Shown piece by piece: positions 2,693 through 55,458 of a stretch of DNA of 64,000 bases. Position numbers and translations under genes: made by a program. The notes beneath the pieces were generated by a model. It had not been told where the DNA came from. It did not search any database and saw only the letters and a list, made by a program, of their open reading frames with translations. Origin of the DNA: Escherichia coli (GTDB lineage: Bacteria > Pseudomonadota > Gammaproteobacteria > Enterobacterales > Enterobacteriaceae); the NCBI RefSeq assembly GCF_045037415.1, contig NZ_CP173438.1. One strand, written 5' to 3'. Each line of letters opens with the position of its first letter. Positions within the stretch are counted from its first letter, which is position 1.

Positions 2693-5600
2693 ATGTCGGT
2701 ATGTCTGAAACCAGGAAAAATCATTGTGCTTCTGGGCATGTTGGCAGCCTTTATGCTGTCTGACTTTGCACGGGCAGAGGTGGAATGGCAGACATATCCT
2801 GGTTCTACAGGCGAGTTTAACGGTACAGTTCCTATTGCCGATAGCGCCAGCGTACCCGTTTATCAGGGAAGCGTTCAGCTTGATCCTGCTGCATCTCATG
2901 ATGTGGCGTTTTCTGCTAAACCGAATGAATTTAGCGTTGACGATGACGCTGCTAACCTGATAGTTGCTAATCCTCAGGACAGTGAAGGCGACCAGTTTTC
3001 TACACCACCTGCGCTGCGCTGGGAAAACCAGACGCCGCCGACCGTCAGTCTGGTGTGGGCGGATGCCGCCACGCCGGATACGCCGCTCAATCCACAGCCC
3101 ATCGCCAACCGCAGCTTTTGCGCGCAAGGTCTGGCCGGGCGTTCGCTGGTGGCCTGGCCACAGATTGATGCGCAGCAGACCATTCCACTGCTTTATCTGC
3201 TGACCTCGACCGGTTATCCCTATGAGGGGACGGTGGTGCTGGCTGACCAGAAAGTGACGCTGAATATCGCGCCCGCGCAGGGCGATTTAATTTCGGTGAG
3301 CGCCAGTGGTTATAACGAAACGCTCGGCGCGGCAAAAACCACCGTTGGCGGCACTATCACGCTGACCGTCACCACCAAAGATTGTCAGGGTAACGTCGCG
3401 GGTAATATTCCATTTATTATCAAGCGTAAAGATGCCCAAAACCGTCAGGGCGCGGTAAATAATACCGCGCCGGTGGTGCTGGATAGCACCGAGTTAACGA
3501 CGACGGTAACCGAGTATCGTGGCACATCGGATGCTAACGGTACGGCAACCATCACGGTGACCCAGCCTAACGGCCCCGGTGTTAAAACGCCGCTGGTAGT
3601 CGGCATTTCCGGCATTGCACAAACCAGTGAGGCGGCGGTGATCTTTACCGTGCTCACCAGCCCGGACGTGGCGCAGGCCACGATGTGGGGCCATATGGCG
3701 GAGACGGTGGAAGCCCATGGTTACACGTTCAGTAGACCAAAACTGGCGGCGGAAGTCAGTAACGAAAATGCCACGGTCGTCGATCACAATGAAACCTGGT
3801 CCACCTTTACCTGGAGCGGCGCAGATAGCCATTGCACCGTGCTGCCGGGCATGCGCCACTTCGGCGCACTGGCGACGGTGATTCCCTCCACGGTACAGAC
3901 TGTGCTCGGCTGGCCGATGCAGGGCGATTATTACTGGTCATCGCTGGCGGGGCTTACCGGGCAGCACCATGCGGCAGATGTCTCTAACCGTGGCGAAACG
4001 CAGAAGCCGGACAGCACCACGTTCCTCGTGAGCTGCGTGGATAAGCCCGCGCCTGACGTCGAGCCGAAAATCGTCCTCACGCCAGAAAACTATGATGACA
4101 CGGCGCAGGCGATGAAAGCGAAGGTGGGCGAGGATGCGACGATGCGTCTGGCCATCACCGACACGAAAAACAACGATCAACCGCTGGCGTATTACTACTT
4201 CTCGCTACATCTGGATGATGGCGTCAATCGTAAGAATCAAACCGACACTGCCTGGGAAGCCCATCCGGTACAGATTGCTGGCGGCAGTAATTTTCGCCAG
4301 GTCGACGCACATACCTATGAAGGCATGACCGACGCCAACGGCCAGGCTTCGCTCACCCTGAGCCAGCCCGGCGGCGCGGGGGTGAAAACCCATATCACGG
4401 CAAGAATGCGCAGCGATTTTAACGCCACAGATGCCAAAGATGTGATTTTTACCGTAATCACCAGCCCGGACAGCGACAAAGCGCGGATGTGGGGCCATAT
4501 GCGCGGCATTATTGAGTCCGGCAGTTTGTATAAACGCCCGTTGCTGGCGGATGAAACCGAGCATGAATTGGGAACAGTGCGGGAAAATAACGAAGACTGG
4601 GCGCTCTACGATCAAAACACCAGTATGCAGGCGGAATGCGGCGTCGGTCATATACCGCGCCAGAGCTCACTGGAAAGCCTGTTTTCAGCCCATCCCGGTA
4701 ACGCGATTGGTACTGAATATGGCTGGCCCACTGCACAACAGGGCTATTTAAGCGCGGTGGAGCAAGCCACGCATTCATCGGTGGATCTGGGGAACGGGAG
4801 CGTCGACAGCTATTCCGGCTTTAAGCCGAATTACCTCTCCTGTTCGGGTAATGAGATGGTAGCGAATGTTGAAGTCAGCACCGATCATGATGTGTCTGTT
4901 GGCACCCAAGCGCAAGCCAAAGTGGGTGACACCATTGTGATGACCGTGCGTACGATTAACTCGCTCAATAATATCCCTGTACCCTTTACTGCATTCACCA
5001 TTACCAAAGGTATGGGGTATAACCGAGCGGGGCAGGTGAGCGGGTTTGATGACCCGAGCAGTGGTGCAATCACGATGGATAACACGCAATACGGCACATC
5101 ACAGTCATCGAAGGTTTATGCGGGAATAACCGATGCCCGGGGCGTGGCGACGGTCGAGATTAAGCAACCACAGGGCGTCGGGCTAAAAACGGTGCTGAGC
5201 GTAACGCCGGTAAATTCCTACCTGCCGAATACCGTTAACTACAGCGTTATTTTTACTACCCCAACCAGCCCGGACGTTACCGGCGCGCAGATGTGGGGCC
5301 ATATGGATGAAACGATCACCGTTGATTCATCAACCTTTACCCGGCCTAAACTGGCGTCGGAAGTCGCCAGCCCGGACGGAACCCTGACCGAAAATAACGA
5401 AATCTGGGCGCGCGTGAGCCAGGCCAATACGTCCAGTACCAGTAAAGGTGGCTGCGACACCAATATGTTGCCACGTCGTTCCCAGCTAAGTGCGCTGTAT
5501 AACGCCAACAGTGGTAACGCGGTGCAAACGGCGCACGGTTGGCCAACACAGCGTCAGCCTTACTGGAGCAACTCACCGGCAGATAAAACTCCACACTTTT

Positions 5601-8600
5601 TCACGATAGCGCTGAACGATGGCGCACAAACTATTGGCGGCGATACGCCGGTTTACGTCAGTTGCCTGAAGACGGCGAACAAACCTGCCAGCAGCATTAC
5701 GCTGGAGGTGGTTGATAAAGCGCAATGGAATACCGGGAATAGCGCGGCAACGCTGAAAAAAGGCGAGACGCTACAGGTTAAAGTGACGGTAAAAGACGCA
5801 CAGGGCAACGCGTTAGCGGATATGCCATTTACCCTCAATCGCGGTGATGGCTATACCCGTAGCGGCGAAAAACATGTGGCGGGCAGCGGCGATGCGCTGG
5901 TTGCGCCGGTGGTAGTCAATGGCGGGCTGGCAGATGAAACCACGTTGAACGACACTGCAACGGTGTATACCGCCATGACCGACAATGACGGCAGCAAAAT
6001 TCTCAATATTACCCGCCCGGATACTCACGGCACCAAAACGGCGCTGACGGCAATGCTTTACTCTGATGCGACGAAAAAATCCAGCATCGACACAATCTTT
6101 ACGGTGGTGACCAGCCCGGATAGCCGCCTGGCAAAAATGTGGGGACATATGCCGGAAACGGTGACTGCTGCGGACGGTACGGTATTTAAGCGCCCGCTGT
6201 TGTTGAAGGAACTGGCCTATCAGACTGGGCGAACATCAACGTCTGAAGACAATGAAAACTGGGCGTTGTTTAACATTAATTATGCAAGTTTTTCCACGAC
6301 GTACAGCGGCTGTGGAACCAACTATATTCCGACTCAGGCCGGTCTGACGTCACTGTTTGCTAATAATGCGGGCAACACCATGAAAACCGTGCAGGGCTGG
6401 CCGGTGGCAACGCGCTATTTATCCAACACTTCCGACAACGGCAGCATGGAGCAGCGTAACTACAAGGCGGTAGATCTCAGCAATGGCACGAGTGCGGCAG
6501 TGTCATCAACGACGCTGGAGCTGCTGACCTGCCAGACCGCGCCGATAGCCGCGGTGAGCCAAATCCTGCTGGAAGCGGCAGATCCGGTGACGCTGGATAC
6601 CACCTATAACGTGGTAAAAGCGAAAAAAAGCGAAGAATCCGTGGTGCGCGTCATCACCAAAGATGCGCAAGGCAACCTTGTGGGCAATACGGCATTTATC
6701 CTGACGCGAGCCAACAGTGTAAGTCGGGCTAATTCATCGGCGACGATGAGTGTGGGCGCGCTGACGGTGACGGATGCGTGGGGAAATACGCGAAATAATT
6801 TCCAGTCAACGAGTGAAACCATTTACGGCGTGACCGGTGCCGACGGGTCAACGACATTTACCCTAAAACAGGATAACAGTACCGGGTTAAGAACCGATCT
6901 CACGGCAAAACTGGATACGTCCAGCAGCGTCAAGGCGATGCTACCGGTGGTCTTTACCGTCGTGACCAGCCCGGATTCGCCAAAAGCGAATTTTTGGGGA
7001 CATATGGCCGAAACGGTGACGGCCTCCGATGGTTCGGTTTATAAGCGACCGTTGCTGTTTGGCGAGCTTACCAACAACTATGCACGATATAGCACGTTTG
7101 AGAACGGTGAAAGTTGGGCAAGATTCACCTCGACTCAGTCGGCTGACACCAGCATGAATGGGTGTGGTACAGATTATATGCCAACGCTGGATGGTCTGAA
7201 GTCTTTGTATGACGCCAATAGAGGTAATGCGATGAATACGGTACAGGGATGGCCGGTAAATATGAGTTATCTCACCAATACCCCGAGTAATACACAAACA
7301 GGGAGCCGTTACTACAATGTGGTGCAACTAAATTCTGGCGCAGTTTCGCAAATCGTATCCACCGTGCTGGCGTTACAAACCTGCCGTACAACGCCGTTGA
7401 TGACTGCCAGCCAGATTACGCTGGAAGCCTCAGACCCCGGGCAGTTTGTCAGCATTGACAGCACACTTAGCGCCGTCAAAGCGAAGAAGGGGGATGAGGT
7501 GTCGATCCGCATTTCGACTAAAGATGCGCAGGGGAATTTAGTCGGCAATACGCCGTTTGCCCTGAAACACGCGAACTCGATCAATCGTCAGAATGTGACG
7601 TCATCGCAGAAAGTGTCAGTCACGACTGCGGCGGGTGCGACGGTGGATACCAGTGCAACGACCATCCTGTATGGTGTAACAGGGCCAGATGGAACCACTA
7701 CGATGACGCTCCGACAGGATGCTTCCACTGGGTTAAGAACCGACTTTTATGCTCTATTAAACGATACTGGCGTGTCGTCGGACACCTTGTCGGTGATCTT
7801 TACCGTCACCACCAGCCCGGATACGCCGCTGGCGACCAATTGGGGCCATATGGCGGAAACCTTTACCAGCAGCGAAGGCGTCACCTTCAAACGGCCTTTC
7901 CTCAAAGCCGAACTCTCTGGCGGTACGGCGAAAACGGCCAATAATGAAGTCTGGTCGCTCCTGACCGCGACTGAGAAAGCGGACGTCAGCAAGGCTGGGT
8001 GTGATGAGGCGTATCAACCGCTGACGACTGATATGCAGGGGCTGTATGTCGATTATCCCAATGGTCAACTGGCAACGGTGCTCGGCTTGCCGACTGCTGC
8101 AGGGAACTGGTGGGATTATGACATGATGGCGGTAGCGGGCGGTAGCTGGAGTAACCAGGCGTTTGTTCCGGGAAATGGTCAGTTGATTCAGGCATCGTCC
8201 AGCTATACGGCGATAGTGATGTGTTTGGTAGAGCCTCATACGGAAGCAGTCACAATAGAGCTTACCTCAACGGCGCAGGATGCAGCAAAATCGCTCAGCA
8301 ATGATGGACGACCGAGCGCTGTAGCGAAGAAAGGTGAGCTGATTCCGTTGACGGTGACCGTGCGTGATAGCGCCGGGAACCCGATGCCATATGCCGACTT
8401 TACCCTTTCGCGTGAAACGACGCTGGATCGCGCGAAAGCAACCGTTAACACGAGTGCAGACGATCTTACCGTAACGGCATTGGTTCCGGTGAGTAGGGAT
8501 AGCGTGTTGACAGCAAGTGGAGCAAAAACTCTCGCAACGACGGGCAGTGATGGCACAGCCACCTTTGAGGTTGGGCAGTACTCTACTACCGGGTTGGCGA

Positions 8601-10774
8601 CGCCGTTAACCGTGACGCTGGCGCGTGATACAACGAAAGTCGCCACGCTGGATGTTATCTACACGGTGATTACCAGCCCAGATTCACCGAGTGCTAAATT
8701 CTGGGGGCATATGCCGGACACCTTTACCAGTTCGGCGGGCGTCACCTTCAAACGACCCCTGCTGAAAACCGAAACCAGCTCAGGCTTATCGATTAGTTCT
8801 AACGGCGAAGTTTGGTCGTATATGAGCAACTTGCAAAATTTAACATCTACAGATTGCCCACTCGAGAATCAACCGCGCAGTAAGGAACTGTTGGATTTGT
8901 ATAGTGATCATCCGAACGGCGCAATAATGACTGACCTTGGGTTACCGATGAATGCGGGTAACTGGTGGGCTTATGATATGGCCATACTGGGTACAACAAC
9001 GTGGTCTTATCAGACTGTCAGCCTGAGAACAGGAGCTATCGCGAAGAATTCTGCAACCAACGCACTGATGCTCTGTCTGGCGCAGCCGCATCCGGCAGGC
9101 GTTAGCGTAACATTGACGTCATCCGCACTGGATGACGCCAGAACCCTCAGCAATGGCGGCCGACCTAGCGCGTCAGTGAAAAAAGATAACCCATTGCCAA
9201 TTGTGGTTATGGTCAAAGATCGTGATGGCAACCCGCTGGCGGGCGAAGCGATAACGCTCAGGCGTGATAATGCGATGAGCCGCTCAGGAACCATTGTAAA
9301 CACGGCAGCAAATGTGATGGTATTGACGGAACTGGCACCCGTGTCGGCAACATTCACTCTCGCCTCACACGGCACGCAATGGCTTGGTTTTACCGGCAGC
9401 GATGGTACGGCGATATTCAATGTTGAACAGCCTGATACTGTCGGCCTGGCAACACCGTTTACCGCCATCCTGGCACGTGATACGGAAACCACCACTGTCC
9501 TTGATGCGATCTTCACCGTTGTCACCAGCCCTGATTCCGCAATGGCGGCCTACTGGGGTCATATGCCGGATACGGTAACGGCAGAAAACGGTGTGGTCTT
9601 TGAAAGACCTAAATTGTGGAAAGAGCTGCCGTCGACATCAGGGGTTAGCAAGGTCAATAGTAACAATGAAGTCTGGCCCGTGTTTAACGCAACGCAGAGG
9701 GCTGACAGCAATCTCAGCCCTTGTGAAGCGGCACGTCGGCCATTGAGTGATGATTTAGAATCGCTCTATGCTCGCTATCCGGGGAACACGCTGACGACAC
9801 AAATCGGTTGGTCTACGCAGTATACATGGTGGGCGCTGGATAACTGGCTGGGAGGCAGTAATCCGCAGGTAGTCGGTCTGAATAATGGTTCAGCGTGGGG
9901 GACGGTGAATACCGCGTATCAAGGGTGCCTGGTTAACCCGCGTGCGACTGTCTCCAGCGTCACGTTGACATCGACGGCACTGGATAGCAGTACGCAGGCG
10001 GCGAAGGTGAAAAAAGGCGACGCCGTTCCCGTTGTCGTTACCGTGAAAGACAGTGTCGGGAAACCAGTGCCGAATATTTCGTTTATCCTCAAACGTGGTG
10101 ACGCTACGCCGCGTAATAGCGGGGCGACGTTGTATGGCGATGTGGATACAATGGACGATTTGACTGTACAACCCTCATCCGGTGCGGCAGTCACGTTGGC
10201 TGATAGCGGGAATACAATCGATGGAGTTACTGGAGCAGACGGTACAGCAAGTTTTACCGTTGGTCAGGATAATACGCCAGGATATAAAACGCCGTTGACG
10301 GTGACGCTGACGGATAACGCCACAATAACGGCGACGCTGGACACGATTTTCACCGTGCCGACCAGTCCTAATGTCGCCACGGCGTATTTCTGGGGTCATA
10401 TGGCGGATACCGCCACGGTAAGTGGCAAGATGCTGCATCGCCCGCTATTAAAATCGGAGTTGCCGTCAGGGGTTACCGCAGCAGCAACGCCCAATGTGAA
10501 TAATGAAACCTGGGCGCTGGCACATGTTATAGATTCCACTAAATGGGATGTCGCACGGCAGTGCGGTAGTATGAATAACGTGCCGAGCAGTGCCGAATTA
10601 CAAACATTACACTCCGGCTTTAGCACATTGGGATGGCCGTCATCGATAAGCTTCCCGTATTTATCTACTGATAAGGCTGGATCGTTCTATTGTGGTGTTG
10701 AGGAAGGCTCTGGCAGTCTCAACTGTGGCATTCAGCCTGCGAAAACGCCGGGGTTTGCAACCTGTTTCCAATAA
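2693..10774 (+). CDS. ratA: Giant repetitive Ig-like-domain surface protein (2693 aa), RatA-like
   Basis: Signal peptide at N-terminus; about nine tandem repeats of roughly 280 aa, each ending in a conserved FTVxTSPD..A..WGHM(A/P)(E/D)T motif; adjacent to xseA as in CS54-type islands. Confidence 0.65.
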
Positions 10775-21990: not shown

Positions 21991-22029
21991 TGAATATTTA
22001 TTATCTGAAATAAATATCAGGCAATAGCT

Positions 22030-22260
22030 ATGAGCGATAACGGACATTTCGATTTCAAAAAGCACTGGCTTGCACTTACTCCGGATGAGCGTGAAGCCTT
22101 CGCACAGGAAGCCGGAACGACGAGTCACTATATCCAGACTCACTTAACAGGTAAGCGCAAAATGCCAGGTAAGGTATTGATGAATGGGCTTTTTAAAGCA
22201 TGTAAAACAAGACAATGGCTGCGCTCAAAAGCGGAACTGGCATACTTCTTCTACTCATGA
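22030..22260 (+). CDS. Cro/CII-like small HTH regulator
   Basis: 76 aa, HTH-like ..EAGTTSHYIQTHLTGKRKMP..; divergent from repressor. Confidence 0.5.
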   Translation: MSDNGHFDFKKHWLALTPDEREAFAQEAGTTSHYIQTHLTGKRKMPGKVLMNGLFKACKTRQWLRSKAELAYFFYS

Positions 22261-22282
22261 TATCTGGCAACAACCCTCTGTA

Positions 22283-22304
22283 GACCGCCATCCGGCGGTC
22301 TTTT
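22283..22304 (+). terminator. Rho-independent terminator after cro-like gene (tR1-like)
   Basis: gaccgcc-atcc-ggcggtc followed by TTTT. Confidence 0.55.
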
Positions 22305-22315
22305 CATATCTATTC

Positions 22316-22330
22316 GTACCTCAAAGGTAA
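22316..22330. promoter_or_regulatory. Imperfect palindromic motif GTACC-TCAAA-GGTAA
   Basis: One mismatch to TTACC-N5-GGTAA; just downstream of the tR1-like terminator. Confidence 0.4.
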
Positions 22331-22410
22331 TAAAAAACCAAATCTGGTTGATCTTTTTTTTGTGTCAGCACAAAATAACCGTAATCCCAATACTAATAAC
22401 AGGGCTTACC

Positions 22411-22611
22411 ATGGAAATCATTACACGTATTGATGCCGCAAAGCGCGGACTTAAACGCTACTACACCGGAAAACCATGTAAGCACGGACATGACAGTGAA
22501 CGCTGGGTTTACAACGGACACTGTGTTGAGTGCACCATGGAGTCAAACCGTCGCATCAGGGCAGAGATTAAGCAGATCATGATTAATTCCTCCCCACAAC
22601 ATTCAAGCTGA
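22411..22611 (+). CDS. Small Cys/His-rich (zinc-finger-like) hypothetical protein
   Basis: MEIITRIDAAKRGLKRYYTGKPCKHGHDSERWVYNGHCVEC..; start chosen at ATG 22411. Confidence 0.4.
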   Translation: MEIITRIDAAKRGLKRYYTGKPCKHGHDSERWVYNGHCVECTMESNRRIRAEIKQIMINSSPQHSS

Positions 22612-22626
22612 TAGCGGAGATTAATC

Positions 22627-23442
22627 ATGAGCAGACATGCAACAGATTGGGCTTGGGAGACAGATCCAGGTAGCTCATCATTAAAGCTCATACTGCTCTC
22701 GATGGCTGACAGAGCCGATGAATATAACCTCTGCTACCCCAGCATAGAACGCCTCGTTAAAGACACTTGCCTGAATAAAAAAACCGTGCAGGCCGGGCTT
22801 ATATCGCTCATGAAAATGGGGATTATTTCAGATACCGGAGAGAGAAAGGGAGCGACAAAAAGAGTGCGGGTTTTCTCTCTTAATATAACCAAAAACGGGA
22901 ACATTAAAGGCAACCGGGAGGGGGGCAATGAACCCGAAAACGGGAATATACCCGAAAACGGGAATATACCCAAAAACGGGATGTTGAATGATCCCAAAAA
23001 CGGGATGTTGAATGATCCCAAAAACGGGATCCAGAACCAGTCATATAACCAGTCATTTAACCAAGAGAGGGAGAGCAGGACAAAAAGCGGGGATTCTGTG
23101 CCTCATGACCCCGGAGCAAACAACGCCGTGATGAATAACTTTGTTCCTCCTGGTGGGCCAGGGCAATTAGGCAAATTTGTCATGCATGAACAATGGCAGC
23201 CATCAGATGACTTTCTTCGGAAAAGCTCATTGCAGGGGATCTACCTGGACAGTCTGCCAACGGCACAGGAACTTGCAGAGTTCAGAATTTACTGGATGGC
23301 TGAGGGTAAGGCATACCATCAGGCACAGTGGGAGCAGAAGCTGGCAAGGCGGCTGCAGATTAGCAGACAGAAGCAATCAACATTACCTGATAACAACGTT
23401 CCGCACTGGAACAGCCCTGAAGCATGGGAGGATTTCTTGTGA
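22627..23442 (+). CDS. Replication initiator (O-like: N-terminal HTH, internal repeat linker)
   Basis: N-terminal HTH-type domain; in-frame tandem repeats in the middle (NGNIPENGNIPKNGMLNDPKNGMLNDPKNG); directly precedes the P-like helicase loader as lambda O precedes P. Confidence 0.6.
   Translation: MSRHATDWAWETDPGSSSLKLILLSMADRADEYNLCYPSIERLVKDTCLNKKTVQAGLISLMKMGIISDTGERKGATKRVRVFSLNITKNGNIKGNREGGNEPENGNIPENGNIPKNGMLNDPKNGMLNDPKNGIQNQSYNQSFNQERESRTKSGDSVPHDPGANNAVMNNFVPPGGPGQLGKFVMHEQWQPSDDFLRKSSLQGIYLDSLPTAQELAEFRIYWMAEGKAYHQAQWEQKLARRLQISRQKQSTLPDNNVPHWNSPEAWEDFL
22933..23032. repeat. Iteron-like tandem direct repeats inside the replication initiator gene (candidate phage origin)
   Basis: Five copies of the core CCC(G/A)AAAACGGGA: two 18-bp units (cccgaaaacgggaatata), two 24-bp units (cccaaaaacgggatgttgaatgat) and a partial fifth. 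Confidence 0.55.
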
Positions 23443-24224
23443 ACAACGTTTTTACCGCGATACAAAACCGTGACGGAGAAGCCCTTTCTCGCATGTCAGG
23501 TTATGAGCATCAGTACGTCAACAATGACAATGTGGTGAACATGTCAGCAGAGAGGCTTGTTGATGCCCTTTTTAAACAGCTGAAACAACTGTTTCCGGCG
23601 GCAGTGGTAACCAACCTGAAGACGCCAGAGCAGGAAGTTGCTGCAAAACAGCAGTGGATTGCTGCGTTTGCCGAAGGGGGGATCCGAACCCGTGAACAGG
23701 TTTCTGCTGGTATGCGCCACGCCCGCGCCAGTGAATCTCCGTTCTGGCCGTCTCCAGGGCAATTTATCAAGTGGTGCAAAGACAGCAAGATGGTTCTTGG
23801 CGTCACCATTGACGATGTGATGGCGGAGTTTCACCGGTACAGCAAGGAAAAAAGTTTATATCCTGGTGGTCCCGAAAGATTCCCGTGGCGACATCCGGTT
23901 ATGTACTGGGTCGTATGTGATACCCGCCGTGCAATGTATCAGCGCCAGCTTAGCGAGATTGAGGTTGAGAAACACGCACGCAGGCTGCTCGATGATTGGG
24001 CGAAAAAGGTGGCTTCCGGACAGCAGATACCCGATCCGGTGATCAGCATACAGGCAAAGCCAGAGCCCATGAGTACGCCTCCGGACACAGGGAGAGACGT
24101 TTACCATCCACCAGGGCGAAGTTTCGGGTGCATGCCTAACGCCGCCACCCTTGGGGGAATAACACCGGCGCAGTGGCTGATGGAGGAATACAGGCGGGGA
24201 AAGGCGGCAGGATTTATCAAGTAA
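23424..24224 (+). CDS. Replication protein P-like (DnaB helicase loader)
   Basis: Clear similarity to lambda P central region as recalled (..QWIAAFAEGGIRTREQVSAGMRHARASESPFWPSPGQFIKWCKD.. versus lambda ..QWVLAFRENGITTMEQVNAGMRVARRQNRPFLPSPGQFVAWCRE..). Exact start uncertain (23424 or GTG 23439). Confidence 0.8.
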   Translation: MGGFLVNNVFTAIQNRDGEALSRMSGYEHQYVNNDNVVNMSAERLVDALFKQLKQLFPAAVVTNLKTPEQEVAAKQQWIAAFAEGGIRTREQVSAGMRHARASESPFWPSPGQFIKWCKDSKMVLGVTIDDVMAEFHRYSKEKSLYPGGPERFPWRHPVMYWVVCDTRRAMYQRQLSEIEVEKHARRLLDDWAKKVASGQQIPDPVISIQAKPEPMSTPPDTGRDVYHPPGRSFGCMPNAATLGGITPAQWLMEEYRRGKAAGFIK

Positions 24225-24261
24225 TACCAGCGCGATAGCGCATTTTTTTACGCCTCGACAA

Positions 24262-24276
24262 TTACCTGTTAGGTAA
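24262..24276. promoter_or_regulatory. Palindromic operator-like motif TTACC-TGTTA-GGTAA
   Basis: Perfect copy, upstream partner of the site at 24324. Confidence 0.6.
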
Positions 24277-24296
24277 TAAAATTTTCTAAAATCTAT

Positions 24297-24324
24297 TGAT
24301 TTCGTGTCTTATGTGGTTTTTAAT
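24297..24324 (+). promoter_or_regulatory. Candidate sigma70 promoter (TTGATT-N16-TTTAAT) for the DUF1064/HNH operon
   Basis: -35 24297-24302, -10 24319-24324; the -10 abuts the palindromic motif at 24324-24338. Confidence 0.4.
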
Positions 24325-24338
24325 TACCTCAGAGGTAA
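24324..24338. promoter_or_regulatory. Palindromic operator-like motif TTACC-TCAGA-GGTAA overlapping the promoter -10/+1
   Basis: Perfect copy 4 nt upstream of the ATG at 24342. Confidence 0.6.
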
Positions 24339-24341
24339 ATC

Positions 24342-24695
24342 ATGAGAAAACAGATACAGGCTCTTGGTCGACTCAAAACAGGTCAGATGAACAAAACAGA
24401 ATCTGCGTATTGCCAGCACCTTGAGCTGCGTAAACGTGCAGGGGAAATCGCCTGGTATCGATTCGAGGGTATCAAGCTACGGTTAGCTGACAACTGCTTC
24501 CTGACTGTAGATTTTGCCGTGATGTTGGCTGACGGGCAGTTGGTGATGGTGGACGTTAAGGGAAGTAAGTCAGTCTTTACTGACGATGCGAGAGTCAAGA
24601 TGAAGGTTGCGGCAGACAGCTATCCGTTTGTCTTTCAGGTTGCTTATCCAAAACCTAAAAAGCTCGGTGGTGGATGGGAGGTTGAGGAACTATGA
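24342..24695 (+). CDS. DUF1064-like phage protein
   Basis: 117 aa MRKQIQALGRLKTGQMNKTESAYCQHLELRK..; recalled as a conserved phage family of unknown function. Confidence 0.5.
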   Translation: MRKQIQALGRLKTGQMNKTESAYCQHLELRKRAGEIAWYRFEGIKLRLADNCFLTVDFAVMLADGQLVMVDVKGSKSVFTDDARVKMKVAADSYPFVFQVAYPKPKKLGGGWEVEEL

Positions 24696-25300
24696 GCGAG
24701 AAGCCCAATGCTGCGGGATTGATTGTATCCGGTGATAAAAACCCGAATTGGAAGGGTGGGAAAATCGAAAAGGTTTGCTCCGTATGTGGCAGGCAATATC
24801 AGGTTAAGCGAGCCAACTCATCTTCAAGGTTCTGCTCACTTCAGTGTGTAGGAATTTCACAGCGAGGCAAGACGGTAAATCGGGAACTAAAGCGAGTATT
24901 AAAAATATGCTGCGTATGCGGATCTTCGTTCTCCGTTTTCTTGAGTCATGAGAAGCGTCATAAATGCTGCTCGAAACAGTGTTCCAACATAATGCGTTCT
25001 TCTCTGATGAAGGGGGAAGGAAATCCAAACTGGTCTGGTGGATTATCGAGATTGCCGTATCCGTGGGATTTCCGAGAAACGAGCAAGAGGGTTATTGAGC
25101 GAGATGGTTTTACTTGTCAGAACCCAGGTTGTGATGGAACAGACAAAAGGCTAACAACTCATCACATCAATTACGACAAGCAAGATTGTCGTCAGGAGAA
25201 CCTTATTTGCCTTTGTTCGAGCTGTAACTCGAAGGCTAATTTCGGTCGGCATAAGTGGCAAAAGTTTTATGAATCACTGATGAAAAATAGATCGGCATGA
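24692..25300 (+). CDS. HNH endonuclease
   Basis: C-terminal HNH signature (..TTHHINYDKQDCRQENLICLCSSCNSK..); multiple CxxC pairs; start overlaps previous stop. Confidence 0.75.
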   Translation: MSEKPNAAGLIVSGDKNPNWKGGKIEKVCSVCGRQYQVKRANSSSRFCSLQCVGISQRGKTVNRELKRVLKICCVCGSSFSVFLSHEKRHKCCSKQCSNIMRSSLMKGEGNPNWSGGLSRLPYPWDFRETSKRVIERDGFTCQNPGCDGTDKRLTTHHINYDKQDCRQENLICLCSSCNSKANFGRHKWQKFYESLMKNRSA

Positions 25301-25442
25301 ATCGACGATCTTTTTAGTTATCAATGTAATCAATAAGTTATGTGGATAAGCGAGGGTAAAGATGGAAAGTAATATCAAAGGGTTAGTTGCCGCCGGGCAT
25401 GAGATGGCTTCGTAACTGAAAGCAGAATGTGGTGCCGTTGAT

Positions 25443-25652
25443 ATGCGCAGTGTGGCAAAGTCCCTTGAGCGTGATGCTGAATACACGATGCGAAAAGGTC
25501 TGCTGATATACAAAATCTGGAATGAGAGTTTAACTCGCGGTCCTGATTTTGTGATGTTGCGTTCCGGTGAATTTTCTAAATTACCAGTTCGGGTTTCATT
25601 TTGTCCGTTCTGTGGTGAAAGTCTGAAAACGTGGGAGAACAGAAATGAATGA
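25443..25652 (+). CDS. Hypothetical protein with C-terminal CPFC zinc-ribbon-like motif
   Basis: ORF only. Confidence 0.35.
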   Translation: MRSVAKSLERDAEYTMRKGLLIYKIWNESLTRGPDFVMLRSGEFSKLPVRVSFCPFCGESLKTWENRNE

Positions 25653-25956
25653 AATTAAAGAAATACCAGTAGTACGTGATGAATATGGCTACTGGACGCA
25701 TCCTGAATATGAAAAATTCTGTGACGGTCGGGAATATATTTCAACGGAAGAGTTTAACGCCTGGATGGAGGAAAATAATCTTCAATACGTCCTCTGCTTC
25801 AGAGATGAAGGATGTGCTGACCTTGATGCGTGTGATGCTGATATTTCTGCATGGGAACCGGAACGACCAGAGGGCAATGGATGGTTTATTGGTTCAATAC
25901 ATGACACCGAAGATGGCCCGGTTTGTGTATGGCTGAGAAATAAGGCCGAAGCATAA
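25645..25956 (+). CDS. Hypothetical phage protein
   Basis: ORF only; overlaps previous stop. Confidence 0.4.
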   Translation: MNEIKEIPVVRDEYGYWTHPEYEKFCDGREYISTEEFNAWMEENNLQYVLCFRDEGCADLDACDADISAWEPERPEGNGWFIGSIHDTEDGPVCVWLRNKAEA

Positions 25957-26084
25957 AGGCTATAAACCGACTAACAACTAAATACTGAAGATTTAAATCA
26001 GAAACGATTTTTATTAAATCCTTAACCGGAGGGATTCCTGCACCCTCAGAACATCAGGAGGCCGTCCGAAAGGGCGGTAGTGAA

Positions 26085-26267
26085 ATGCGAAAATTCAAAA
26101 TAATTATTGAAACGGGAATAGCCGGTGGAGATTTCGAGGATGAATTCGAAGTGGATGATGATGCAACACCAGATGAAATACAGGATGAAGCTAAAGATAT
26201 TTTCTTTAACTACTGCAATTACTCATACCACGAAATAAAAGACGAAGAGGAAGAACAAAATGGCTGA
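26085..26267 (+). CDS. Small highly acidic protein (60 aa)
   Basis: About one third D/E residues (..GGDFEDEFEVDDDATPDEIQDEAKD..EIKDEEEEQNG). Confidence 0.45.
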   Translation: MRKFKIIIETGIAGGDFEDEFEVDDDATPDEIQDEAKDIFFNYCNYSYHEIKDEEEEQNG

Positions 26268-26436
26268 TTTTGGTTCAACTAAATATAACGCCAGTTTTGA
26301 AGAATGGCATGAACTGTTAATGGATTATGCAGAGTTACGCGGTGGAAGTGCCGCTGATGCTGAAGCATGGCGTGATGATTATGAAGCAGGGAAAACACCG
26401 GTCGAAGCATATTGTGATGAGTGGGGCGATGAATGA
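26260..26436 (+). CDS. Small acidic protein (58 aa)
   Basis: Translated by hand: MADFGSTKYNASFEEWHELLMDYAELRGGSAADAEAWRDDYEAGKTPVEAYCDEWGDE; ATG overlaps previous stop; below ORF-track cutoff. Confidence 0.4.
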   Translation: MADFGSTKYNASFEEWHELLMDYAELRGGSAADAEAWRDDYEAGKTPVEAYCDEWGDE

Positions 26437-26792
26437 GCGAGATTAATTATCAGGAAGGGCATGAAAAGGCAGGGCAGGCAAAACCAGTTGCATGGCGATA
26501 TCGCTACGTGAAAAAAGACGTTACAGACTTTCAGGGGAAGCCGTGGGCTGGTGACTGGAAATATGTACCGACAAAAGAGGATTGTAACGACAGGCCGAAC
26601 TATGAAATTCAGGCCTTATTCATCGGCCCGCCAGTCCCGGTGACATCAGAAGGACTGGTTAAAGCCGTGCGCTTTTATGAACAGGTAAAGCGTGAGAATC
26701 CGCCAGTCGAAACAGGAGCATGGAAGGATGCTGTTGACTGGGTGCTCAGAGAGGCTTGCCAAGCTGTAAACATTGGCATCAAAGGAGAGTGA
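26433..26792 (+). CDS. Hypothetical phage protein
   Basis: ORF, translationally coupled to neighbours. Confidence 0.4.
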   Translation: MSEINYQEGHEKAGQAKPVAWRYRYVKKDVTDFQGKPWAGDWKYVPTKEDCNDRPNYEIQALFIGPPVPVTSEGLVKAVRFYEQVKRENPPVETGAWKDAVDWVLREACQAVNIGIKGE

Positions 26793-26793
26793 T

Positions 26794-27918
26794 ATGACCA
26801 CTATGACCAAAGAGCGACTACTGACAATCAAGCAGTGGCGCGAAACATACGGACCTGGTAGCAACGTTGTACTGCCAGCAGAAGAAGCGGAAGAACTGGC
26901 ACGAATTGCACTTGCATCGCTGGAAGCAGAACCGGTGGCGTGGATGCGTGATGACGCAGATGGTCGTGAGTATAACGCTCGCAATGAATTTTCTGGTGGA
27001 GGGGGAGGAGTTCCACTCTACGCCACCCCTCCAGTGCCAGTAGTACCGGAAGAAAAACCAATGCCTAATCCTCTTAGCATGTACGCGGTTGATGCTGTTG
27101 CCGCTATTGCAGAGGTGAGAGGCTGGAACGCCTGCCGCGCCGCCATGCTTCATGGTGCCGAACCTGCAAGTAATCATGAAGAGTTGCCACTTGATTATCT
27201 CCAAGGTCAAAAAGATGGTCTTGAATGGGCTGCGCAGCTTGCAGAAGCAAATCACCCACAAACTGGCGACTGGCTTTACGATGACCCGCTGGAGCTGGCT
27301 AAAGCTATCAGAAAAGGTCCTGACATGCCCGAATTCGATGGACCAACTCCGATAACGCCTGAGGCCATTGAAAACGCAATTGAATACATCCGCAGTATCG
27401 CTTTTCACATCGATGAAGACGATTACCACGGCAAACATATTGCGTATTTCATGCGACAAGCATTGGCCTTGCTGGAAGGGCATTCATGCAGCAACGACAG
27501 ACTGGGTAAAGCCGATAATCAACCAGTACGCGGCAACCAGGCTGCCGAATCCAATCGCGGTAATGAGTGGACCGGCAATCCTGATATTGATAACGCCATC
27601 ATCATGCTCGATCGCATAGATACGCTGGAAAGTTGCGATGATGACCGTATTGAGGCGGTTAAGACTGTTTTGCGTAGACTGGCTGGCAACTATCCGGTAA
27701 CTCCGGATGGTTTGATAAGCTGTAGTGAGCGAATGCCGGATACCAAAACAGCCGTTCTTGTTGCCGTGGAGTTTGACAGGAAAGGTGACTGGCGAATGAA
27801 ATGGGCGACTTACATCCCGGGGCATCCTGACGCTAATGATGGGTGGATAATTCCTGGTGCGTCGTGGAAACCGTCACACTGGATGCCGCTACCAGAACCG
27901 CCGCAGGAGGTGAAGTGA
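26794..27918 (+). CDS. Hypothetical phage protein with C-terminal DUF551-like domain
   Basis: SD aaggagag before ATG 26794; C-terminal ..WIIPGASWKPSHWMPLPEPP resembles the DUF551 family (recalled). Confidence 0.45.
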   Translation: MTTMTKERLLTIKQWRETYGPGSNVVLPAEEAEELARIALASLEAEPVAWMRDDADGREYNARNEFSGGGGGVPLYATPPVPVVPEEKPMPNPLSMYAVDAVAAIAEVRGWNACRAAMLHGAEPASNHEELPLDYLQGQKDGLEWAAQLAEANHPQTGDWLYDDPLELAKAIRKGPDMPEFDGPTPITPEAIENAIEYIRSIAFHIDEDDYHGKHIAYFMRQALALLEGHSCSNDRLGKADNQPVRGNQAAESNRGNEWTGNPDIDNAIIMLDRIDTLESCDDDRIEAVKTVLRRLAGNYPVTPDGLISCSERMPDTKTAVLVAVEFDRKGDWRMKWATYIPGHPDANDGWIIPGASWKPSHWMPLPEPPQEVK

Positions 27919-28040
27919 TGAACAAGTGCAACGCTCTGCTTTATGCCATGGTGATTGGTTTCGGCCTGGCTGCTGGTATCCGGGTTTATATTACCTGGGA
28001 GTCATTAATCAATCTGGCGTGGAGTGCGATTCGTGGCTAA
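27918..28040 (+). CDS. Small hydrophobic membrane protein (40 aa)
   Basis: SD aggagg upstream; MNKCNALLYAMVIGFGLAAGIRVYITWESLINLAWSAIRG. Confidence 0.4.
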   Translation: MNKCNALLYAMVIGFGLAAGIRVYITWESLINLAWSAIRG

Positions 28041-28371
28041 ATCCCCCGCAGAACGCAAAGCCGCGCAGCGCGCTCGGCAGTCCGCCGCCGGTGAGCGCAA
28101 AATTGAACTGGTGCTGGATAAGCAGGAGCAGGAAATGCTGGCGCGGAACTGCGCCGCCCGGCGCCCTGGTCGCGATCCCTATGAAATGGCCGAGTACATC
28201 GCGCTGCTGATCCGCCAGGATGATGCACGTGTGCGCGGGCGTATAAAATCGATCAGCAGAAAACGTTGCGGTAAGTGCGGCGAGAGAGTTCCAGTTAATT
28301 CATGCCCGTGTAATGGTGACTCGCAATGCTGGGTGACTAAAGGCTGGCATGAAACGAAATTAATAGTGTGA
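28024..28371 (+). CDS. Hypothetical protein with C-terminal Cys-rich zinc-ribbon-like motif
   Basis: ..RKRCGKCGERVPVNSCPCNGDSQCW..; immediately upstream of the packaging genes. Confidence 0.4.
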   Translation: MRFVAKSPAERKAAQRARQSAAGERKIELVLDKQEQEMLARNCAARRPGRDPYEMAEYIALLIRQDDARVRGRIKSISRKRCGKCGERVPVNSCPCNGDSQCWVTKGWHETKLIV

Positions 28372-28456
28372 CATGTCACGAGTAGATTATGCATGATGAA
28401 TTTGACGGTTTTGGATACTGCCGCCAACTATGGCGGCTTTATTTTGCATGGTACTA

Positions 28457-28471
28457 TTACCACAACGGTAA
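28457..28471. promoter_or_regulatory. Palindromic operator-like motif TTACC-ACAAC-GGTAA upstream of terminase small subunit
   Basis: Perfect copy 18 nt upstream of the TerS ATG at 28489. Confidence 0.55.
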
Positions 28472-28488
28472 CTATTACCACGGTGGTT

Positions 28489-29085
28489 ATGATGCCTGCT
28501 GAACCTAAAACCTATAAACGCAAATCAACGCAATTTAAGCCACTAACAGCAATGCAGGAGGCTTATTGCCAGTCATACATCAAAACGCCTGAAAACCAGA
28601 CTCAGGCAGCGATTAACGCAGGATTCTCTCCAAATACAGCGGCAGTTAAAGCCAGTGTCATGATGCGCGATGAACGCATTCAAAAACGGATTGCCGAGTT
28701 GATGGAGGAGCGCAACAAACGAATGCGCGTCAGTGCTGATTACGTTCTCATGCGCCTGGTGGAGATCGACCAGATGGACGTGATCGACATCCTCAACGAC
28801 GATGGGAGCCTTAAACCAATCCGTGAGTGGCCGAAAATCTGGCGCACTACGCTTAGTGGCTTTGATCTGTCATCGACCATCATGAACATGAACGAGGATT
28901 CGATAGAGACAATCCTCAAAAAAATTAAATGGCCTGACAAGGTGAAGAACCTCGAACTGATTGGTAAGCACGTCGACGTCAACGCATTCAAAGAACGCCT
29001 GGATGTTAATGTGAATGTGACAATTGCTGATCGCATAGCAGCAGCCAGGAAGCGACTCAAAGAACGTCAGGATGGTAATCAGTGA
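28489..29085 (+). CDS. Terminase small subunit
   Basis: MMPAEPKTYKRKSTQFKPLTAMQEAYCQSYIKTPENQTQAAINAGFS.. typical TerS N-terminus; directly precedes TerL. Confidence 0.75.
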   Translation: MMPAEPKTYKRKSTQFKPLTAMQEAYCQSYIKTPENQTQAAINAGFSPNTAAVKASVMMRDERIQKRIAELMEERNKRMRVSADYVLMRLVEIDQMDVIDILNDDGSLKPIREWPKIWRTTLSGFDLSSTIMNMNEDSIETILKKIKWPDKVKNLELIGKHVDVNAFKERLDVNVNVTIADRIAAARKRLKERQDGNQ

Positions 29086-30557
29086 CAGATACAGCGTTAT
29101 CTCCTGAAGAGCAGTTGATCGAGGATATTGCAGGGTTCACTCACGATCCGCTTGGCTATGCCCTCTATGCGTTCCCGTGGGGGGAAGAGGGGACTGAACT
29201 GGCACATGCTACCGGCCCACGTAAGTGGCAGGCTGATGCGTTCCGAGAGATACGTGATCACCTGCAGAATCCAGAGACGCGCTATCAGCCGCTTATGCTG
29301 GCACGTGCTTCGGGTCACGGTATTGGTAAATCCGCATTCATCTCAATGCTGATCAACTGGGGCATGTCCACTTGCGAGGATTGTAAGGTCGTGGTGACCG
29401 CCAACACCGACAACCAGCTACGAACGAAGACCTGGCCGGAAATTATCAAGTGGTCAAACCTTGCTATCACGAAAGACTGGTTTACCTGTACAGCTACCGC
29501 GATGTACAGCAATGACCCTGGACACGACAAGCGGTGGCGAGCTGACGCAATCCCCTGGTCTGAGCACAACACTGAGGCATTCGCCGGACTACACAACGAG
29601 CGCAAACGCATCATCGTGGTATTCGATGAAGCGTCGAATATTGCGGATCTGGTGTGGGAAGTTGCCGAAGGTGCGCTAACGGACGAAGACACTGAGATTA
29701 TCTGGGTGGCGTTCGGAAACCCGACGCGTAATACCGGGCGATTCCGTGAATGTTTCCGCAAATATAAACACCGCTGGAAAACTGCGCAGATTGACAGCCG
29801 GACGGTGGAAGGCACTAACAAACAGCAGTTGCAGAAATGGGTTGATGACTACGGGGAAGACAGCGACTTCGTTAAAATCCGTGTGCGCGGCATATTCCCT
29901 GATGCATCTGAATTGCAGTTTATCCCTACCGGTCTTACTGATGAGGCAATGAAACGGGTGGTAACCGCTGCGCAGGTGGCGCATGCTCCGGTGATAATCG
30001 GTGTTGACCCGGCATATTCAGGCGTTGATGACGCGGTGATATACCTGCGGCAGGGGCTGCACAGTAAGGTGCTATGGACTGGTAACAAGACCACCGACGA
30101 TCTGATTATGGCGAAGCGTATCGCTGACTTTGAAGACCAGTACCAGGCTGACGCGGTGTTCATCGACTTCGGTTACGGAACTGGTCTGAAGTCAATCGGT
30201 GATGGCTGGGGTCGTACATGGCAACTTGTTCCGTTCGGTGGCGCGTCTACTGACCCGCAGATGCTCAACAAGCGTGGGGAGATGTTCAACTCATGCAAGA
30301 CATGGCTGAGGCTGGGCGGCATGCTGGATGACCAGGAAACAGCGGACGACCTGTCTGCGGCAGAGTACAAAGTTCGAGTGGACGGTAAAATCGTTATCGA
30401 ACCGAAGGAAGATATCAAGGAGCGGCTTGGGCGTTCTCCTGGTAAAGGCGATGCGCTACTGCTGACGTTTGCGTTCCCTGTGTCGAAGCGTCTGCGAATT
30501 CCCGGGCAGCAGAACCAGCAAGGCAAGGCCATCACAGATTATGACCCGTATGCTTAA
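29082..30557 (+). CDS. Terminase large subunit
   Basis: 491 aa with Walker A-like ..ARASGHGIGKSAF.. and C-terminal nuclease region. Confidence 0.9.
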   Translation: MTDTALSPEEQLIEDIAGFTHDPLGYALYAFPWGEEGTELAHATGPRKWQADAFREIRDHLQNPETRYQPLMLARASGHGIGKSAFISMLINWGMSTCEDCKVVVTANTDNQLRTKTWPEIIKWSNLAITKDWFTCTATAMYSNDPGHDKRWRADAIPWSEHNTEAFAGLHNERKRIIVVFDEASNIADLVWEVAEGALTDEDTEIIWVAFGNPTRNTGRFRECFRKYKHRWKTAQIDSRTVEGTNKQQLQKWVDDYGEDSDFVKIRVRGIFPDASELQFIPTGLTDEAMKRVVTAAQVAHAPVIIGVDPAYSGVDDAVIYLRQGLHSKVLWTGNKTTDDLIMAKRIADFEDQYQADAVFIDFGYGTGLKSIGDGWGRTWQLVPFGGASTDPQMLNKRGEMFNSCKTWLRLGGMLDDQETADDLSAAEYKVRVDGKIVIEPKEDIKERLGRSPGKGDALLLTFAFPVSKRLRIPGQQNQQGKAITDYDPYA

Positions 30558-53461: not shown

Positions 53462-53558
53462 GACCAAATTTAGGTAATTATTATCCGTAAATGGTTTATT
53501 GTGTATGATGGACCTCATCTTCTAAGGGGGTTTTTATGCACAATAAACGGTGGTTACC

Positions 53559-53960
53559 ATGAATGGCACGGTTACGGCGGATTCACTGAATCAAGGGTTA
53601 AGCTTGGGTGCGCTGGCCTCTGTCGTCTACGGCGTTCCGCCAGAGGTGGCTCTCGGTGCTCTGGCTGGTGCGGTAATATTTGTTACCTCTGCTGTAGAGT
53701 ATCCTGTTCGTCGTCGTGTACTCTTGTCGATACTCAGCTTTCTTTGTGGTCTTCTCTTTTACAAACCAACAACATCAATTCTTATCGGAATAGCCAGCAT
53801 GATACCTACCATCACGCAGGACTCTTTCGAGAAAGGGATTGTTTTCTCTGCTGGCGCATTCGTGTCAGCAATTGTCGCAGTGCGAATTGGTATATGGCTC
53901 TATCACCGTTCTGATAATCCACGCCAGTTAATTCCTGGGAGAAAAGGCGATGGTAACTAA
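53559..53960 (+). CDS. Holin-like membrane protein
   Basis: Multiple predicted TM segments; first gene of the lysis cassette; short leader ORF upstream. Confidence 0.45.
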   Translation: MNGTVTADSLNQGLSLGALASVVYGVPPEVALGALAGAVIFVTSAVEYPVRRRVLLSILSFLCGLLFYKPTTSILIGIASMIPTITQDSFEKGIVFSAGAFVSAIVAVRIGIWLYHRSDNPRQLIPGRKGDGN

Positions 53961-54258
53961 TGAGCTTGTTTTGCTTATCACCAATGCAATTATTTGTACT
54001 GGCATAGCAATTCGCGTTGTCACATTCCGGCGTAACGGCTCTCAACATCGAAGATGGGGAGGGTGGCTTGCTTATTTCCTTATTGTTGCTGCGGCCAGTA
54101 TTCCTGTTCGTGTCGCCTATGCAATCTGGTTACGTACGCCAATGGCTGTGGATTTATCTGAGGTCATTATCAACGCTGTCATGCTTGCCGCGGTTATTAA
54201 AACACGCGGTAACGTTGTTCAGATTTTCAAAACATCGAGGTCTAAACATGGAGATTAA
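53950..54258 (+). CDS. Holin-like membrane protein 2
   Basis: 102 aa with 2-3 hydrophobic segments and charged C-terminus; immediately upstream of endolysin. Confidence 0.5.
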
Positions 54259-54877
54259 ACAATTCCAGCGAGCTGCTGGTATTAGCGAGGCTCTGGCCGC
54301 ACGCTGGTTCTCGCATATAACTTCTGCGATGAAAGAGTTTGGTATCAGAAAACCCGAAGATCAGGCAATGTTTATTGCTCAGGTCGGGCATGAGTCTGGT
54401 GGCTTCACCAGGTTGCAGGAGAATTTCAATTACAGCGTCACCGGACTGGCTAACTTCGTTCGTGCCGGTCGTCTTACTCAGGGACAGGCTAACGCATTGG
54501 GTCGTCGTGCAGGCGAGCCACCATTGCCACCTGAGCGCCAGCGTGCGATTGCCAATCTGGTGTACAGCAAACGCATGGGGAACAATGCCTCTGGTGATGG
54601 CTGGAATTACCGTGGCCGCGGACTTATCCAGATTACCGGTTTGAATAACTATCGTGATTGCGGAAACGGCCTGAAAGTGGACCTGCTGGAGAATCCTGAA
54701 CTGTTGGCGCAGGACGAATACGCGGCTCGTAGCGCGGCGTGGTTCTTCTCCAGCAAAGGTTGCATGAAGTATACCGGCGATATTGCACGTGTAACTCTGA
54801 TTATCAATGGTGGCAGGAATGGCATCGACGACCGGCGCGTGCGGTACATCACTGCCAGTAAGGTGCTGGCGGTATGA
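54248..54877 (+). CDS. Endolysin, glycoside hydrolase family 19 (chitinase-like)
   Basis: ..[28 protein letters not shown].. GH19 signature; start at MEIKQFQ (the ORF-track 54017 start is an upstream extension). Confidence 0.85.
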
Positions 54878-55371
54878 TCTGGGCATTCGCAAAAGCATAC
54901 CGGAAACAGTTGGTTGTCATGGCGATGCTTGCTGTTCTGGTCATATCAGGAGTTGTTGCCTGGAATGTGCATGGCAGCCGCCAGTACGATGCCGGGTATG
55001 CTCAGGCGAAGGAAGATCAGAAACAGGCTGATGATAAGTTAAGGTCACAGCGTGAGCAGGAGAAAACACAAATTGAACGTGAAGCACAATCCCGTATCGA
55101 TGCGGCGCGTGCTGATGCTGAGTATGCTAATTCCGCTGCTGACAGCATGCGCGCCGAGCTTGACAAAACCAGGCGGCTCGCCGAACACTATACCGGATCT
55201 TTCCCCCCTGGCACGCCAGCCAGCAAGGTCATCGGTGTGCTCGCCGACATGCTTGAAGAAAGCAACCGAGTTTACAACGCAACAGCAGCTGAGGCTGAAA
55301 AGTATCGTATCGCAGGGGAATTCTGCGAGCAGCAATACGATTCACTGAAGAAGCAAAAATCGTGGCACTGA
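54874..55371 (+). CDS. Spanin inner-membrane subunit (Rz-like)
   Basis: N-terminal TM helix followed by charged coiled-coil region; follows endolysin. Confidence 0.65.
55100..55348 (+). CDS. Spanin outer-membrane lipoprotein subunit (Rz1-like), embedded in the +1 frame of Rz
   Basis: Lipobox LLTAC, Pro-rich mature region; start uncertain (55100 or 55115). Confidence 0.5.
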   Translation: MRRVLMLSMLIPLLTACAPSLTKPGGSPNTIPDLSPLARQPARSSVCSPTCLKKATEFTTQQQLRLKSIVSQGNSASSNTIH

Positions 55372-55458
55372 TTTCCGGTGACGGTATATAAAACGGTACG
55401 GTGAAAATCAGGTTACAGAAAGTTGTTACCAGTCAATTGGTTATGCATGCCGTAAATA

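Follow-up and report, generated by a model that had tools for sequence, protein, structure and literature searches.

Two unrelated, strongly acidic small proteins encoded by a mobile gene pair of an Escherichia coli prophage, and their possible role in counter-defence

T7 Ocr (gp0.3) and plasmid ArdA are small, very acidic proteins encoded by mobile elements, and their dimers imitate roughly 20-40 bp of DNA. Ocr, an elongated all-helical dimer that imitates bent B-DNA, is the product of the first gene expressed from the entering end of the phage genome. T7 gp5.9, an acidic protein of 52 aa, and phi29 p56 belong to a smaller size class: these 50-60-aa acidic inhibitors of RecBCD and uracil-DNA glycosylase, respectively, show that a protein of fewer than 60 aa can be a DNA-mimicking inhibitor. 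Two adjacent genes of an Escherichia coli prophage, here called ORF60 and ORF58, encode proteins that match gp5.9 and p56 in both size class and charge. With Ocr and ArdA they share small size, strong acidity (their charge density is comparable to that of Ocr) and carriage by a mobile element; for ORF58 alone of the two, the likeness extends to a family common to phages and conjugative plasmids. In contrast to Ocr and ArdA, the two proteins are only about half to a third as long, and unlike Ocr they are not the first to be expressed. The original prediction, made from the sequence of the locus, proposed that they are possibly DNA mimics inhibiting restriction or other DNA-binding defence proteins.

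The window analysed is a 64,000-nucleotide stretch of E. coli chromosome (contig NZ_CP173438.1), and all positions given below are those of the window unless another sequence is named. It contains a prophage of approximately 40 kb, extending from an integrase gene (~15.7 kb) to the lysis genes (~55 kb), in which lambdoid early regulation is combined with epsilon15/BPP-1-like podovirus structural genes. Strain A1.S1.18 (NZ_CP146595.1) is 100% identical over the 5-kb stretch compared. To one side of ORF60 and ORF58, on the same strand, is the gene for replication protein P (23424-24224), and to the other is that for the small terminase subunit (~28393 onwards); within the rightward operon the pair is preceded by cro-like, O/P-like, DUF1064, HNH and other ORFs. 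The interval between replication P and the small terminase gene shows no convincing promoter or terminator. The predicted location in an early rightward operon, between replication and packaging genes, is borne out by strand and by the lack of internal signals; the position is not a first-expressed one, however, as the pair lies mid-operon, several kb into a delayed-early transcription unit. Four further accessory ORFs, missed in the original prediction, separate the pair from the terminase gene.

Several other features of this region were recorded. An intact 202-aa ORF at 24692-25300 (+) has clear HNH-endonuclease matches (phrog_1271, E 3.7e-23) and weak matches to the IscB and ZorE HNH domains; it is unannotated in the identical RefSeq record, where it falls in the gap between the coding sequences at 24342-24695 and 25404-25652. 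A 381-aa ORF at 26773-27918 (+) has an N-terminal part related to ORF119 (phrog_660) and C-terminal parts of the DUF551 type, and appears to be an accessory gene of mosaic or partly duplicated origin; RefSeq represents it as a DUF551 pseudogene fragment and a 324-aa DUF551 protein. A phrog_536 "transcriptional regulator" (28024-28371) is located just ahead of the terminase gene. The replication-to-terminase interval (~22000-29100) contains neither a Q-type antiterminator gene nor a lysis cassette, and the holin and endolysin genes are found at the far end of the prophage, past the tail fibre gene (~53500-55400). Outside the prophage, the chromosomal part of the window includes a very long ORF of 2693 aa (2693-10774, +).

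ORF60 (26085-26267, +) encodes a 60-aa protein identical to WP_001224665.1, with a net charge of -15, and ORF58 (26260-26436, +) encodes a 58-aa protein identical to WP_000753053.1, with a net charge of -12. The two consecutive small acidic proteins are exactly where they had been placed, and the pI calculation that had been proposed gives 4.05 for each. Aspartate and glutamate make up 33.3% of ORF60 and 27.6% of ORF58. The neighbours ORF103, ORF60 and ORF58, with net charges per residue of -0.17, -0.25 and -0.21, exceed in acidity all the other proteins among the 48 annotated in the prophage (the next in order has -0.07). ORF103 (25645-25956, +; 103 aa, pI 4.14, net charge -17) is directly upstream of the pair; it is a member of phrog_1372 (hypothetical), has no Pfam match and is also present in phage mEp460. 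This third, equally acidic ORF was also missed in the original prediction. We treat it as context only; it lies outside the mobile two-gene cassette described below.

The two reading frames overlap by 8 nt (26260-26267, +): the sequence ATGGCTGA contains both the start codon of ORF58 and the stop codon of ORF60. A Shine-Dalgarno-like motif, GAGGAAG, is located 6 nt upstream of the ORF58 ATG, and the ORF58 stop codon in turn overlaps the next ATG (ATGA, 26433-26436). Together, these three features fit the translational coupling that had been suggested. Across eight diverged copies (89-100% DNA identity), the pooled pN/pS is 0.10 for ORF60 and 0.20 for ORF58, and it is 0.02-0.17 when intact copies alone are considered. 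Sequences identical to ORF60 and to ORF58 are carried by at least 1000 contigs. Both are real genes under purifying selection. The two proteins are unrelated to each other, a point missed in the original prediction.

ORF60 matches Pfam family DUF7167 (PF23768) with an E value of 1.6e-14 over model positions 1-60 of 60, as well as phrog_1997 (E 2.7e-30), and RefSeq already names its product DUF7167. The only other Pfam-A match is a weak one to AnkX_ins (i-E 0.0047). The protein carries the family motif F-E-V-x-D-D-A-T...E-A...C-N-Y. In the DUF7167 alignment F21, T28, I32 and E50 are invariant and D25, D26 and A27 nearly so; judged by its residues, ORF60 is a typical member of the family with nothing divergent about it. 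An AlphaFold2 model built from the family alignment has a mean pLDDT of 88 and a compact fold, in which a beta-hairpin (residues 2-8 and 17-23) is packed on an amphipathic helix (29-43) and followed by a less ordered acidic tail. When this model was used in a Foldseek search of AFDB50, only other uncharacterised DUF7167-like proteins were returned, and we found no literature on the family.

DUF7167 members are stand-alone proteins of 50-60 aa (about 55). They occur in prophages of Escherichia, Klebsiella, Citrobacter, Serratia, Yersinia and Pseudomonas, in Klebsiella Guernseyvirinae, in Enterococcus Herelleviridae phages and in many Firmicutes. Their gene neighbours vary between elements. In the Klebsiella Guernseyvirinae the DUF7167 gene overlaps the start of a phrog_69 exonuclease gene, and in P22-like prophages it is found in the early-left region, in the order Erf-SSB-Dam-(DUF7167)-HolE-like-Xis-Int. 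A recurrent link between DUF7167 and an exonuclease was considered and rejected: the arrangement is confined to the Guernseyvirinae, and the "exonuclease" annotation in the Enterococcus phages has no PHROGs support.

ORF58 has no Pfam family (its Pfam-A scan was empty) and matches phrog_519 with an E value of 8.5e-23, residues 1-58 of the protein being covered. Its AlphaFold2 model, also from a family alignment, has a mean pLDDT of 87 and is a compact three-helix bundle (helices 13-27, 34-42 and 47-55). An exhaustive search yielded 61 representative relatives, which have the pattern F..W...L...A...G....D..AW..DY..G.TP..A in common. Their carriers include conjugative plasmids, which are outside the coverage of PHROGs, and both temperate and virulent phages, among them Ackermannviridae, a KP34-like podovirus and a T5-like phage. 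The Kuttervirus relative comes after the gene for the major capsid protein, and that of Morganella phage Mecenats66 is two genes from rdgC. A machine-learning prediction of phrog_519 in Kuttervirus as an anti-CRISPR is the sole published hint on the function of either family; we found no papers on the WP or UniProt accessions of ORF60 or ORF58, or on R721_90.

Longer database "homologues" were inspected for informative domain fusions, and most proved to be miscalled starts or frameshift fusions. The one real fusion is a 218-aa protein of the T5-like phage EP_H11 (gene at 3506-4162 of the section compared), in which a NADAR domain (PF08719, residues 16-160) is followed by a C-terminal ORF58-like domain with 73% identity. 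This NADAR fusion was seen in four phage records only, and in other T5-like phages the NADAR/YbiA-like gene stands alone.

Acidity is a conserved property of both families. Net charge ranges from -10 to -16 in 45 aligned DUF7167 proteins, down to 46% identity, and from -4 to -15 in 37 relatives of ORF58, down to 29% identity. In DUF7167, 14 positions are acidic in 70% or more of the members, and in the ORF58 family 10 are. By helical-wheel analysis, every predicted helix has its acidic residues on the side roughly opposite to the hydrophobic one, and the second strand of ORF60 has E-E-E on its outward face; the solvent-exposed surface of each protein is therefore predicted to be acidic. We infer that the negative surface is functional. 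Acidity on its own is weak evidence, because many small phage proteins are acidic.

The two genes move as a unit. This mobile unit consists of the 352-bp pair and a conserved leader of ~30 nt, and it sits in a variable accessory stretch. The leader (26056-26084, +) comprises the sequence AGGAGG (26056-26061), 23 nt from the ORF60 start codon in the linear sequence, and a 7-bp GC-rich hairpin with a GAAA loop (26061-26078), which ends 6 nt from the ORF60 ATG. Homology to the Stx-phage copies starts at the leader, which is nearly invariant in seven diverged copies and has a folding energy of -14.2 kcal/mol (z = -2.6). The hairpin has no Rfam match, and it may serve to bring the Shine-Dalgarno sequence and the ORF60 start to a working distance.

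Of 5426 complete E. coli genomes, 1749 (32%) carry the cassette in intact form. Its location is not fixed: in the Stx2a phage ArgO145 it is in the early-left Ea22 region, and in Rac/Qin-type prophages it is downstream of the replication genes and upstream of hokD. The DUF7167 copies of cryptic Qin/Rac-type prophages often have internal stops or frameshifts (ATCC 8739 and Rac 442/2 are examples), and some of these decayed copies also have a stop in ORF58. Frameshifted variants are found on more than 100 contigs, and one truncated DUF7167 variant is on 107 contigs. Such stops in cryptic prophages are expected decay. In phage phiSTEC1575-Stx2k only the last 75 nt of ORF58 are left (1501-1575 of the section compared; 26360-26436 in the window), directly upstream of a DUF551 gene; lambdoid phages therefore use this 3' end as a site at which accessory modules recombine.

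Despite their coupling here, the two genes are also found separately. DUF7167 occurs without ORF58 in a Klebsiella prophage of the same architecture, in Guernseyvirinae, in Enterococcus phages and in P22-like prophages, and relatives of ORF58 occur without DUF7167 in Kuttervirus, in the KP34-like phage phiKDA1 and in Mecenats66. HMM searches of these single-family loci for the missing partner found none. We thus reject the possibility that ORF60 and ORF58 form an obligate pair or complex, each family being alone in several phage or plasmid lineages. On IncI2 plasmids, ATGGCTGA recurs at the end of another upstream gene, DUF1187 (YdaC-like; positions 1793-1800 of the section of p4222 compared): the first codons of ORF58 (ATG GCT GA.) provide the stop codon of whichever gene precedes it, and the coupling junction therefore belongs to ORF58 itself. 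A 127-aa database protein is a frameshift fusion of DUF1187 and ORF58. A role in lysogeny control, like that of the lambda exo-xis ORFs, was also considered and is disfavoured because both families are found in strictly virulent phages.

A tblastn search located relatives of ORF58 on 554 plasmids, 516 of which are conjugative; 414 of the plasmid matches have 80-90% identity, and plasmids of roughly 60 kb are among them. The one ~60-kb plasmid that was examined, p4222, is typed IncI2 and carries mcr-1. Its ORF58 homologue belongs to an operon of a CaiF/GrlA-family regulator, DUF1187, SPFH and NfeD genes, followed by type IV secretion system (T4SS) genes. On an IncT plasmid the homologue is part of a ~28-kb co-directional array of small ORFs that starts after mobI and contains higBA and psiA, and on a Klebsiella IncFIB/IncU plasmid it is part of a ~36-kb array that includes a DNA methyltransferase gene and ends at umuD.

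Companion genes of this kind and umu boundaries are features of the anti-defence islands in plasmid leading regions described by Samuel et al. 2024 (PMC11541004). The IncT and IncFIB/IncU arrays resemble those islands in their co-directional small ORFs, higBA, psiA, methyltransferase and umuD boundary. The IncI2 homologue, in contrast, lies ~14.5 kb away from oriT and is oriented opposite to the T-strand, so that it would not be read from the incoming strand. Judged by companion genes, the plasmid contexts of ORF58 are at most suggestive of anti-defence islands. Both families are absent from the supplementary tables of two studies on accessory genes or leading regions, PMC11541004 being one of the two.

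How well, then, does the pair fit the known DNA-mimic anti-restriction proteins? Among the lines of enquiry that had been proposed, structure prediction gave the confident hairpin-and-helix and three-helix folds described above; the search for Ocr/ArdA-like relatives by Pfam, PDB and fold comparison turned up no kin of any known DNA-mimic anti-restriction protein. The Pfam-A scans of ORF60 and ORF58 contained no anti-restriction family even at E<=10, and no Ocr chain was returned by sequence and profile searches of the PDB. Neither protein resembles Ocr, ArdA, ArdB/KlcA or Arn in sequence or in fold, or the RecBCD inhibitors lambda Gam, T7 gp5.9 and P22 Abc2, and neither predicted fold corresponds to the elongated dimer of Ocr. 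No sequence or fold match to any solved protein was found. There was likewise no match to a characterised Acr and no neighbouring aca gene, and both proteins are absent from PADLOC and NCBIfam.

An Ocr/ArdA-type identity is thus unsupported. These failed searches are not decisive, since DNA mimics are grouped by function and not by fold, and the high, conserved net negative charge of that class is present in both families. That ORF60, ORF58 or both would occupy the DNA-binding groove of a type I or other restriction-modification enzyme, as a special case of the decoy mechanism set out below, is also in keeping with predicted helix faces that are acidic, with a charge density that is extreme as well as conserved and with the occurrence of ORF58, as of ArdA, in both phages and conjugative plasmids. 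Set against this, a monomer of 58-60 aa is far shorter than the stretch of DNA mimicked by the Ocr and ArdA dimers. The delayed-early position is a poor fit to a first-line role in the style of Ocr: genes several kb into such an operon would be expressed too late for the protection of incoming unmodified DNA. The prophage also already has an MT-A70 methyltransferase gene. We consider this explanation very improbable for the present pair.

The explanation that we favour, tentatively and with somewhat less than even confidence, is an acidic decoy mechanism. The pair is an accessory cassette of two genes within the delayed-early rightward operon of a podovirus-type prophage with lambdoid regulation, its products being two unrelated, independently mobile, compact and strongly acidic mini-proteins. 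Each protein would act alone as a decoy, binding stoichiometrically to the basic surface with which a host protein, or a protein of a competing element, holds nucleic acid; the conserved negative surface would be the working part, and the protein would be an inhibitor serving counter-defence or host takeover. ORF58 makes the stronger case, because its family is common to many phage types and to conjugative plasmids, a distribution across unrelated elements that is typical of counter-defence genes. The failure to find homology to any characterised inhibitor, the mid-operon position, the capsid-gene neighbour in Kuttervirus, the SPFH/NfeD operon and orientation on IncI2 plasmids, and the variable neighbours of DUF7167 all count against such a mechanism.

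Two further explanations were weighed against the decoy mechanism. In one, which we regard as distinctly unlikely, one of the proteins would inhibit or modulate a nuclease acting on DNA ends (RecBCD, for example, as lambda Gam and T7 gp5.9 do) or would serve the recombination or replication proteins of its own element; this, too, may be seen as a special case nested within the decoy mechanism. The acidic 52-aa gp5.9 is a precedent, protection of DNA ends is a need of phages and plasmids alike, and slight help comes from the prophage itself, which has RecE-like and RecT genes and no recognisable Gam or Abc homologue. The neighbourhoods of DUF7167 in the Erf-SSB-Dam-HolE-like region and at the exonuclease start in Guernseyvirinae, and of ORF58 near rdgC in Mecenats66, point the same way; however, proximity to recombination genes says little because early-left regions contain them anyway, neighbours differ from element to element, the supposed exonuclease beside DUF7167 in Enterococcus phages lacks PHROGs support, and the PDB searches returned nothing similar to Gam or gp5.9. 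In the other explanation, the proteins have no role in conflict at all: they would serve the DNA metabolism of mobile elements as small adaptors, regulators or chaperone-like factors, or would be near-neutral passengers kept by virtue of their place at recombination junctions, and their acidity would serve solubility or folding. We judge this unlikely on balance, with a substantial share of the probability nonetheless. For most small phage ORFs no phenotype is known, cryptic prophages contain decayed copies (stops in ATCC 8739 and Rac 442/2, and frameshifted variants on more than 100 contigs), ORF58 is used at its 3' end as a mosaic junction, and the Kuttervirus and IncI2 copies sit beside head genes and in an SPFH/NfeD/T4SS operon, respectively. 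Against this explanation stand the strong purifying selection on intact copies and the retention of specific acidic positions over wide divergence, and the spread over unrelated phages, plasmids and, in the case of DUF7167, bacterial phyla argues for a portable benefit that is independent of context.

Returning to the decoy mechanism, a broader reading would join the two families. The ORF58 family (phrog_519), an acidic module of 55-60 aa with three helices found in temperate and virulent enterobacterial phages and on IncI2, IncT and IncF/U conjugative plasmids, would be a hitherto unrecognised counter-defence or establishment protein shared across mobile elements. By charge mimicry it would neutralise a DNA-binding defence protein, or a DNA-processing protein, that is conserved in enterobacteria. 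DUF7167, independently, would make up a second family of inhibitors, found in phages of both Gram-negative and Gram-positive bacteria. Taken as a whole, this joint reading is rather doubtful.

Both proteins are already catalogued as hypothetical proteins, under DUF7167 and phrog_519, and are candidates for screening and not a discovery. What is new here, and of most use, is that diverse phages and conjugative plasmids have the ORF58 family in common, in contexts that are like those of anti-defence islands, and this makes ORF58 a sensible candidate for experimental screening. If either protein inhibits a host defence or DNA-processing enzyme, it would be a very small and very widespread addition to the counter-defence catalogue. 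As the ORF58 family is carried by mcr-1-bearing IncI2 plasmids, such an activity, if true, could bear on the establishment of resistance plasmids and Stx phages in new hosts.
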